Origin: a virus
Lineage: Duplodnaviria; Heunggongvirae; Uroviricota; Caudoviricetes
Direction: 5' to 3' (one strand)
IMG/VR virus record: IMGVR_UViG_2711768034_000010
DNA: 12,525 nt
Within the stretch, counting starts at the first letter, position 1. Each line of letters begins with the position of its first letter. This document shows positions 9,598-9,951 of this stretch, in pieces. The notes under the pieces are model-generated. The model did not search any database. It saw nothing but the letters and a program-made list of their open reading frames with translations, and was not told where the DNA came from. The translations under genes and the position numbers were made by a program.

Positions 9598-9610
9598 GAC
9601 CGCCGACCAA

Positions 9611-9655
9611 CATTAGGCTAAGCCTATTGACATGACATTAGGCATAACCTAACAT
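9611..9655. promoter_or_regulatory. Second operator cluster (OL-like) upstream of the int operon
   Basis: ATTAGGCT-A-AGCCTATT at 9612-9628 (same motif as 7672-7690, one mismatch in the right arm) and ATTAGGCATAACCTAA at 9637-9652. Confidence 0.4.
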
Positions 9656-9951
9656 CAAGTGAGTCTGATGGACTATGTCATCTTGGCGGCACCAGTTTCC
9701 CCATTGTTTCTGGTTCGCCCTTTTACAAAAGACATCAGAGCACCACCGAGTGACGTGCCCTAACACAATCCGCCCGAGCGGATTTGCGGCCGCAGGTGCT
9801 CTTCTGTGTTGTGTGGAGAACTAACGTACCGCCATTGCAGTGGCGGTCCCCCATCAGCAAGAAATTTTAACCAGCTATTCACCCATTCTCATGGGTTGGG
9901 TTGCTGCACCCTAAATTTACGCGTTGCAGAGCGTCAGATGGAGAACAAAAG

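Follow-up and report, generated by a model that had tools for sequence, protein, structure and literature searches.

Does the short intergenic stretch that follows the terminator of an AT-rich gene and precedes the genes leading to int serve as the left operator and early-left promoter of a lambdoid immunity region? We addressed this question in the window, by which we mean the whole 12,525-nt stretch of DNA that was analysed. It covers the end of a defective lambdoid prophage that lies nearest the integrase, beside a tRNA-Ser(CGA) gene. Leftward from 7666, the genes encode a YdaS/Cro-like HTH protein, a YmfL/CII-like protein, a Dam methylase, and a RusA/tail-fibre fusion ORF, and rightward from 7741 follow a 158-aa repressor, an AT-rich 384/389-aa gene, a terminator, the dyad region in question, and the genes of 9952-12286 that end in int. 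The genes and signals that frame the question are as follows.

7376-7639, minus strand: YdaS/Cro-like HTH protein, ATG at 7639 (Pfam YdaS_toxin, 104 bits; P22_Cro, 29.8 bits)
7741-8217, plus strand: RacR-type repressor, 158 aa (NCBIfam NF049929 RacR equivalog, 254 bits against a cutoff of 200)
8388-9542, plus strand: AT-rich cargo gene, 384 aa from the ATG at 8388 (389-aa ORF), with an HSDR_N nuclease-like N-terminus
9571-9600, plus strand: intrinsic terminator of the repressor/cargo transcript, a 9-bp stem at 9571-9592 with 5 GC pairs, then T8
9952-12286, plus strand: early-left operon encoding a 99-aa protein, a ParB-like protein, two small ORFs, and a tyrosine integrase
12399-12488, minus strand: tRNA-Ser(CGA)

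The ORF at 5176-6018 (minus strand) is RusA-like in its N-terminal segment and continues into the glycine-rich C-terminus of a tail fibre, a fusion that points to a large deletion of late-regulation, lysis, and head/tail genes and thus to a defective prophage. No replication or lysis genes are in view within the window, and it lacks the replication genes that the sequenced Klebsiella phage KpF5 has in the interval from the CII-like gene to dam. The same immunity region, at 98% identity, occurs in KpF5, in a few complete E. coli genomes, and in approximately 30 IMG/VR contigs. Further to the left, a very AT-rich Acyl_transf_3 gene (4106-5197, GC 0.33-0.36) adjoins a gene for a tail-fibre-like protein that carries a SASA/SGNH acetylesterase domain (1747-3810), and the pair at 1747-5197 looks like an O-antigen acetylation/deacetylation (serotype-conversion) module. 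At the left edge (16-666), a piece of an IS3-family transposase gene (rve_3, 16-282) adjoins an integrase-like ORF that is truncated (253-666, minus strand); we read this as a sign that the region has decayed further or that a second element lies there.

Repressor, operator dyads, and the predicted left promoter

The window repressor is 56% identical to K-12 RacR over 152 aa. A Pfam domain search detected no peptidase or S24 self-cleavage domain in its 158 residues, and no PDB relatives were found. The preliminary description had expected the left promoter to be induced by the SOS response; this part is not supported because, for a repressor without an S24 domain, SOS/RecA-mediated cleavage is not expected. 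In the similar case of Qin DicA, repression is relieved by an antirepressor (bioRxiv 10.1101/2023.04.14.536235).

To locate the operator motif, the whole window was scanned for ATTAGGCNNNGCCTAAT with up to 3 mismatches allowed, and 200 shuffles served as the control. The scan retrieved 6 matches, against 0.60 expected (sd 0.83), a count reached by none of the 200 shuffles. Five of the six fall in two intergenic clusters, one at 7673, 7698, and 7733 (the right operator, OR) and one at 9612 and 9637 (the left operator, OL), 1.94 kb apart, and the suggestion that the motif recurs some 1.9 kb from the right cluster thus holds. The sixth match (ATAATGCTTGGCCTAAT, 4103-4119, 2 mismatches) lies over the ATG of the acyltransferase gene; it is isolated, without a partner site or promoter, and a single such match agrees with chance, so it was rejected as an operator. 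The sites and the two promoters that they overlap are listed below.

7673-7749: right operator region, with O1 at 7673-7689, O2 at 7698-7714, and O3 at 7733-7749 (0, 3, and 2 mismatches, respectively)
7671-7699, minus strand: PR-like promoter of the cro-like gene, TTGATT (7699-7694), 17 nt, TAATAT (7676-7671)
9612-9628: promoter-distal left operator, ATTAGGCTAAGCCTATT, 1 mismatch to the consensus, with a right arm that overlaps the -35 hexamer
9637-9653: promoter-proximal left operator, ATTAGGCATAACCTAAC, 2 mismatches, lying over the spacer and the start of the -10
9627-9655, plus strand: PL-like early-left promoter, TTGACA, 17 nt, TAACAT, 10 of 12 consensus matches

The promoter-distal left operator differs by one base from the perfect palindrome ATTAGGCTAAGCCTAAT of O1. 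Both the near-duplicate of the right palindrome and the second imperfect dyad had been noticed in the preliminary description, and both are real, with small corrections to their limits (the right palindrome spans 7673-7689 rather than 7672-7690, and the second left dyad ends at 9653 rather than 9652). The two left dyads are spaced 25 bp centre to centre, which is also the spacing of OR1 and OR2. No third OL dyad was found at a spacing of 25 or 35 bp around the pair.

The identity of the motif can be read from published work on K-12 RacR, for which DNase I footprinting established 5'-ATTAGGC-3' as the monomer site, along with three inverted repeats of the form (T/A)TAGGC-n3-GCCTA(T/A) (PMC9638921); an earlier EMSA study had noted the same repeats (PMC5700373). 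The left site at 9613-9627 (TTAGGC-TAA-GCCTAT) fits the published consensus (PMC9638921) fully, and that at 9638-9652 (TTAGGC-ATA-ACCTAA) deviates from it once. In K-12, O1 lies on the ydaST promoter and the O3 spacer lies on the racR ATG (PMC9638921); the OR of the window has the layout published for K-12 O1-O3 (PMC9638921), its O3 overlapping the racR ATG. Since the left sites match the footprinted half-site and the window OR reproduces the K-12 layout, the motif at 9612-9653 is, judged by its sequence, a RacR-type operator.

Both left dyads overlap the core of a predicted plus-strand sigma-70 promoter that faces the int operon and points away from racR. Its hexamers are TTGACA at 9627-9632 and TAACAT at 9650-9655, with a predicted start at approximately 9661-9664, and it is the only sigma-70-like site on the plus strand in 9600-12525. 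The right arm of the 9612-9628 dyad supplies the TT of the -35 (GCCTATTGACA), and the 9637-9653 dyad occupies the spacer and runs into the -10. The PR-like promoter has 8 of 12 consensus matches, which is below the threshold of the promoter scan, and was recognised by reading the sequence. On the minus strand of OR (CTTAGGCAATTCCTATTGATTgtttATTAGGCTTAGCCTAATAT), O2 lies on the TTGATT -35 and O1 on the TAATAT -10. One operator on the -35 and one on the -10 is thus common to PL and PR, so the left module is the O2-O1/PR design reversed, as in lambda.

The surroundings of the left sites are also as first described. They begin 12 bp beyond the T-run of the 9571-9600 terminator, whose stem and T8 form the sole plus-strand terminator-like site between the repressor and the left sites, so their position directly after the terminator of the AT-rich gene is confirmed. 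Their position upstream of an operon ending in int was likewise correctly stated, the ORFs there running unbroken on the plus strand with overlapping stops and starts (9952-10251, 10251-11036, 11033-11167, 11152-11322, and int at 11309-12286) up to a strong 13-bp terminator 3' of int (12290-12319).

The left module and the cargo slot in related loci

Loci encoding relatives of the repressor were gathered from genome contigs (three loci; two oddly labelled MAGs) and from viral contigs. Dyads lie at -68, -43, and -8 relative to the repressor ATG in nearly every related locus; only L004, which has one dyad, and L042, the record of which starts inside racR, depart from this. Downstream of the repressor, the paired-dyad module is present in 40 of the 42 loci with a RacR-type HTH and enough downstream sequence. 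Many of these 40 loci are near-identical to each other, and 17 distinct module sequences remain. Aligned, these give a 44-bp module, ATTAGGCnnnGCCTATTGACAnnnnATTAGGCnnnRCCTAAT-AT, with unrelated flanks in the 17 distinct versions. The dyad spacing in the relatives is 25 bp (26 in L005), and the -35/17/-10 geometry is retained in all 17 distinct modules. In 17 of 17, the right arm of the first dyad has T in place of A, a fixed change explained by its forming the TTGAC of the -35. The module starts 112-2662 bp beyond the repressor stop, and the loci bearing it cover 56-100% repressor identity, including KpF5 and L005, a GC-rich Herbaspirillum MAG.

The two exceptions are L003 and L004. L004 matches the repressor only at the N-terminus. 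L003 (Klebsiella sp. R390, 5933-7900) encodes a full-length RacR relative (73% identity) and has an OR and an HSDR_N cargo gene, with no recognisable OL/PL within 6 kb, and thus the module can be lost.

Two loci bear on which part of the repressor the module follows. In L005 (1268-1951) and L044 (1209-1919), a RacR-like HTH (residues approximately 1-75) is fused to a Peptidase_S24 domain in single ORFs of 227 and 236 aa, respectively, and both loci keep the same OR and OL motifs despite the S24 C-terminus. The module therefore follows the HTH domain and not the C-terminus. On their predicted domains, the two repressors are a case of C-terminal domain shuffling with unchanged DNA specificity, like classical cI in architecture.

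The reverse exchange is seen in prophages with other repressors. In e14, PL lies directly 3' of the cohE terminator (TTGACAatgtacctttgagatacaTAATGT) and carries GTAC-type dyads that recur at e14's own OR, and the leader that follows (aacaggcaggacgcccacgaagtagc) is common to e14 and the RacR-type loci L039-L041. Qin dicBp has the same build, after dicA and with its own dyads. The operator thus swaps with the repressor while the adjoining DNA does not, which is the behaviour expected of functional operators at the boundary of an immunity module.

A copy of the module is also found in the K-12 Rac prophage (L002, 9629-9670; NC_000913, about 1,419,628-1,419,669; TTGACA-17-TATAGT), 96-137 bp past racR and upstream of ydaG. 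The searchable RacR papers make no mention of a pair downstream of racR and describe only the sites in the racR-ydaS intergenic region. Depletion of RacR in K-12 raises ydaG, ydaF, kilR, ydaE, racC, recET, ralR, xisR, and intR 40-100 fold or more (PMC11014345; bioRxiv 10.64898/2026.09.06.749655), and this derepressed ydaG-to-intR operon is the one behind the K-12 copy of the module. We predict that E. coli K-12 has two RacR sites, so far undescribed, upstream of ydaG; they would account for the reported rise of kilR, recET, and intR when RacR is lost.

The interval between the repressor and OL (window 8218-9611; L002, L005, L033-L045) is a variable cargo slot. It is empty, at 112-188 bp, in K-12 Rac, L038-41, and L045, and it holds an HSDR_N gene, at approximately 1.4 kb, in the window, KpF5, L033, L035, and L037. 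In L034, an IS interrupts the HSDR_N gene (slot of 2.6 kb), L005 carries genes for an LprI-like protein and a 360-aa protein, and L044 carries two small ORFs. An IS1, IS3, or IS5 is annotated inside the matched 2.7-kb immunity-region stretch of several E. coli genomes. The slot of the window has a GC content of 0.38 versus approximately 0.50 around it, and its gene product matches Pfam HSDR_N (54 bits) and the phrog_4225 'endonuclease' family (508 bits), with only a faint match to type I R-subunits in NCBIfam and no PDB homologue by sequence. Since no cargo protein of the window or its relatives matches a PADLOC defence family, the 'defence' label for this gene stays a guess. We infer that the cargo gene may be expressed in the lysogen, because no plus-strand terminator lies between racR and the gene, one follows the gene, and CP-933P and lambda provide precedents.

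The reading of the left sites as an OL/PL-like repressed promoter is thus supported by the motif statistics, the promoter geometry, the conservation in 40 of 42 loci, the specificity swap, and the published data on homologues. We consider it very probable that 9612-9653 is the OL, embedded in PL, of a lambdoid immunity region of the RacR type. RacR-like dimers (from 7741-8217) would bind both 17-bp dyads, one over the -35 and the other over the spacer and -10, and the bound repressor would exclude RNA polymerase, leaving the operon at 9952-12286 silent in the lysogen. The repressor and the 384-aa gene, which lie between OR and OL, would be read in the same direction as PL and stop at the terminator at 9571-9600, and so could be expressed while both outward promoters are shut. 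OL and OR may also loop together across the 1.94 kb as in lambda, which is plausible since RacR is reported to form octamers (PMC11014345). Binding, repression, and looping at the window sites are what we infer from sequence comparison, and, the prophage being defective, the switch may no longer matter biologically.

Three other readings were weighed against this one. The left dyads might be auxiliary repressor sites without a promoter, either a looping partner of OR or a roadblock that backs up the terminator, with int driven from elsewhere; looping between distant operators is established in lambda, RacR is reportedly octameric (PMC11014345), and the sites do come right after a terminator. 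This reading does not account for a 10/12 promoter interleaved with the dyads, the hexamers and 17-nt spacing of which are kept in 17 distinct modules, or for the A-to-T substitution, fixed in all of them, that gives the -35 its TTGAC. In addition, no other promoter-like site is present on the plus strand in 9600-12525, and PR shares the two-operator design, so we regard promoterless sites as quite unlikely. We give still less credence to the dyads being mainly targets of the Cro-like YdaS or of another factor rather than of the RacR-like repressor. YdaS is said to be a competitor of RacR at the operators of Rac (PMC11014345), and it also regulates PL in CP-933P (PMC8630535), but such binding is compatible with binding by RacR, just as lambda Cro and cI share operators; moreover, the half-site was footprinted with RacR (PMC9638921), and the motif tracks the RacR-type HTH across loci.

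The least credible reading is that the recurrence arose by chance or is the functionless remnant of a duplication, which we hold to be extremely improbable. The isolated match at 4103-4119 does show that single chance matches occur, but the shuffles never reach the observed count, and the fixed 25-bp spacing and the overlap with the promoter are kept in 40 of 42 loci while the surroundings diverge. Chance recurrence was rejected on the shuffles together with this conservation.

A structured leader RNA behind the predicted left promoter

Approximately 290 nt separate the left promoter from the first ORF of the operon, and this leader contains the following element.

9684-9825, plus strand: conserved structured RNA element of approximately 140 nt (covariance model R1, 93.5 bits, E 1e-18)

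More than 55 distinct phage contigs contain the element, at identities of 70-86%. It consists of a GC-rich hairpin (P1, 9685-9719) with a U-run, a long-range helix of 9721-9744 with 9795-9819, and two inner hairpins. The long-range helix is 21 bp long, takes in the U-run of P1, and is rich in G-U pairs, which makes it strand-specific. After an ACUAAC sequence follows a further hairpin (9828-9847), in which the stem varies and the UGCAG loop is conserved. Since P1 (9685-9719), with a U-run of 4, is terminator-like and lies approximately 25 nt into the transcript, further control may be needed for transcription from PL to get as far as int.

Covariation across the five helices of the element is strong. 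When 19 sequences were aligned with MAFFT, 94.4% of cells paired, compared with 39-52% for slid partners, and both-sided changes occurred in 16 pairs, compared with 3-6 in the slid controls. None of 500 shuffles reached the observed values on four of the five covariation measures, and 1 of 500 did so on the fifth. Among 65 model-aligned sequences, 26 of 46 pairs have both-sided changes, in an alignment that was fitted to the model and thus leans towards the structure.

The element is widespread, with one copy per related locus. Its core consensus matches 2809 of 5426 complete E. coli genomes, at a median of 1 place per genome, and among the 25 matches listed the stretch is unannotated or is annotated as a hypothetical protein or YmfH. 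In K-12, R1 matches e14 at 113.5 bits, where the element overlaps the annotated 'ymfH' just upstream of xisE; there was no R1 match in K-12 Rac, the HK022 immunity region, or the Qin dicF region. An Rfam search of the window, taken to E up to 10, retrieved no match, and a literature search retrieved none for the invariant sequence of the element or for ymfH as an RNA.

Two described RNAs were considered and rejected. For DicF (RF00039), the e14 copy scored 28.5 bits against a gathering threshold of 48, seven other copies of the element gave no match at E up to 0.1, and the window gave none at E up to 10. The first hairpin with its U-run (window 9685-9725; L167 3701-3754, minus strand; L168 2883-2935) resembles the DicF terminator hairpin, and the resemblance is confined to this TTGGCGG...GCCGCCCTTTTT hairpin. 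DicF likewise lies in a PL-like operon (bioRxiv 10.1101/2023.04.14.536235), and published work has its 5' ends made by RNases III and E and its 3' end by termination. The put RNA of HK022 was rejected because R1 does not match the HK022 immunity region, no similarity is apparent by eye, and the element occurs as a single copy per locus, unlike putL and putR, which follow PL and PR. A lambda-type nut site (boxA, boxB, and N) was considered as well. The leader has a boxA-like UGCUCUU at 9797-9803 and, in the UGCAG-loop hairpin at 9828-9847, a candidate boxB; the boxA-like stretch is, however, paired within the covarying helix, and family searches assigned the 99-aa product of the first ORF to no N-like family.

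The element could be a leader device that decides early-left read-through to the recombination, excision, and integration genes via termination, antitermination, or RNA processing, or it could be the source of a DicF-like small RNA. We propose tentatively, as a possibility somewhat short of probable, that an undescribed RNA class of approximately 140-165 nt opens the PL transcript, whether as such a cis-acting device or as a DicF-like sRNA source, in addition to an unreported RacR OL that includes the one in K-12 Rac. On this reading, the leader element belongs to the early-left operons of many lambdoid prophages; its core occurs in approximately half of the complete E. coli genomes.

Comparison with known lambdoid switches

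The layout of the left region is textbook lambda-like. It is a known kind of element, so the finding is correct but ordinary and leaves the understanding of lambdoid switches unchanged; the leader RNA is the least ordinary thing in the stretch. For this locus, the analysis fixes the boundaries of the immunity region (from OR at 7673-7749 to OL at 9612-9653) and identifies a predicted promoter that would control int. It also places the gene between racR and OL in a variable cargo slot, the position at which the lysogen-expressed rexAB or paaA2-parE2 sit.

The preliminary description had likened the repressor and the AT-rich gene, sandwiched between OR and OL, to cI-rexAB of lambda, and the topology of PRM, repressor, cargo, terminator, OL/PL, and int bears this out. 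As in lambda, an outward early promoter lies under repressor dyads of the same class as those of OR, the repressor and cargo read toward OL and end at a terminator just before it (here the analogue of t-imm), PL leads to int, and OR and OL are approximately 2 kb apart (1.94 kb here). Unlike lambda, which has three OL sites, the window has two, at a spacing of 25 bp. Its repressor has an unrelated C-terminus without the S24 autocleavage domain, no N gene or obvious nut/N system follows its PL, and its cargo is a single HSDR_N-type protein rather than RexAB.

In its operators the window resembles K-12 Rac, which shares the ATTAGGC half-site, the n3 dyad, the three-site OR with O3 on the racR ATG, and an equivalog repressor, and which differs in having no cargo gene between racR and the left pair. 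CP-933P (PaaR2-PaaA2-ParE2) has the same ydaS/ydaT-type lambdoid switch, with a repressor co-transcribed with cargo, in that case a toxin-antitoxin pair (PMC8630535). Its PL, with OL1-3 beyond paaR2-paaA2-parE2, has been cloned, and reporter assays showed that it is repressed by the repressor and by YdaS (PMC8630535); its operators, in contrast, are repeats of the consensus GTTTAGTAA, and there are three sites. Lastly, e14 (CohE/YmfK) and Qin dicBp (DicA), which served as our specificity-swap controls, have other repressors and other dyads, but they share with the window the order of a terminator or gene end, then TTGAC(A/C)-17-TAAT(G/C)T with dyads, leading into an early-left operon.
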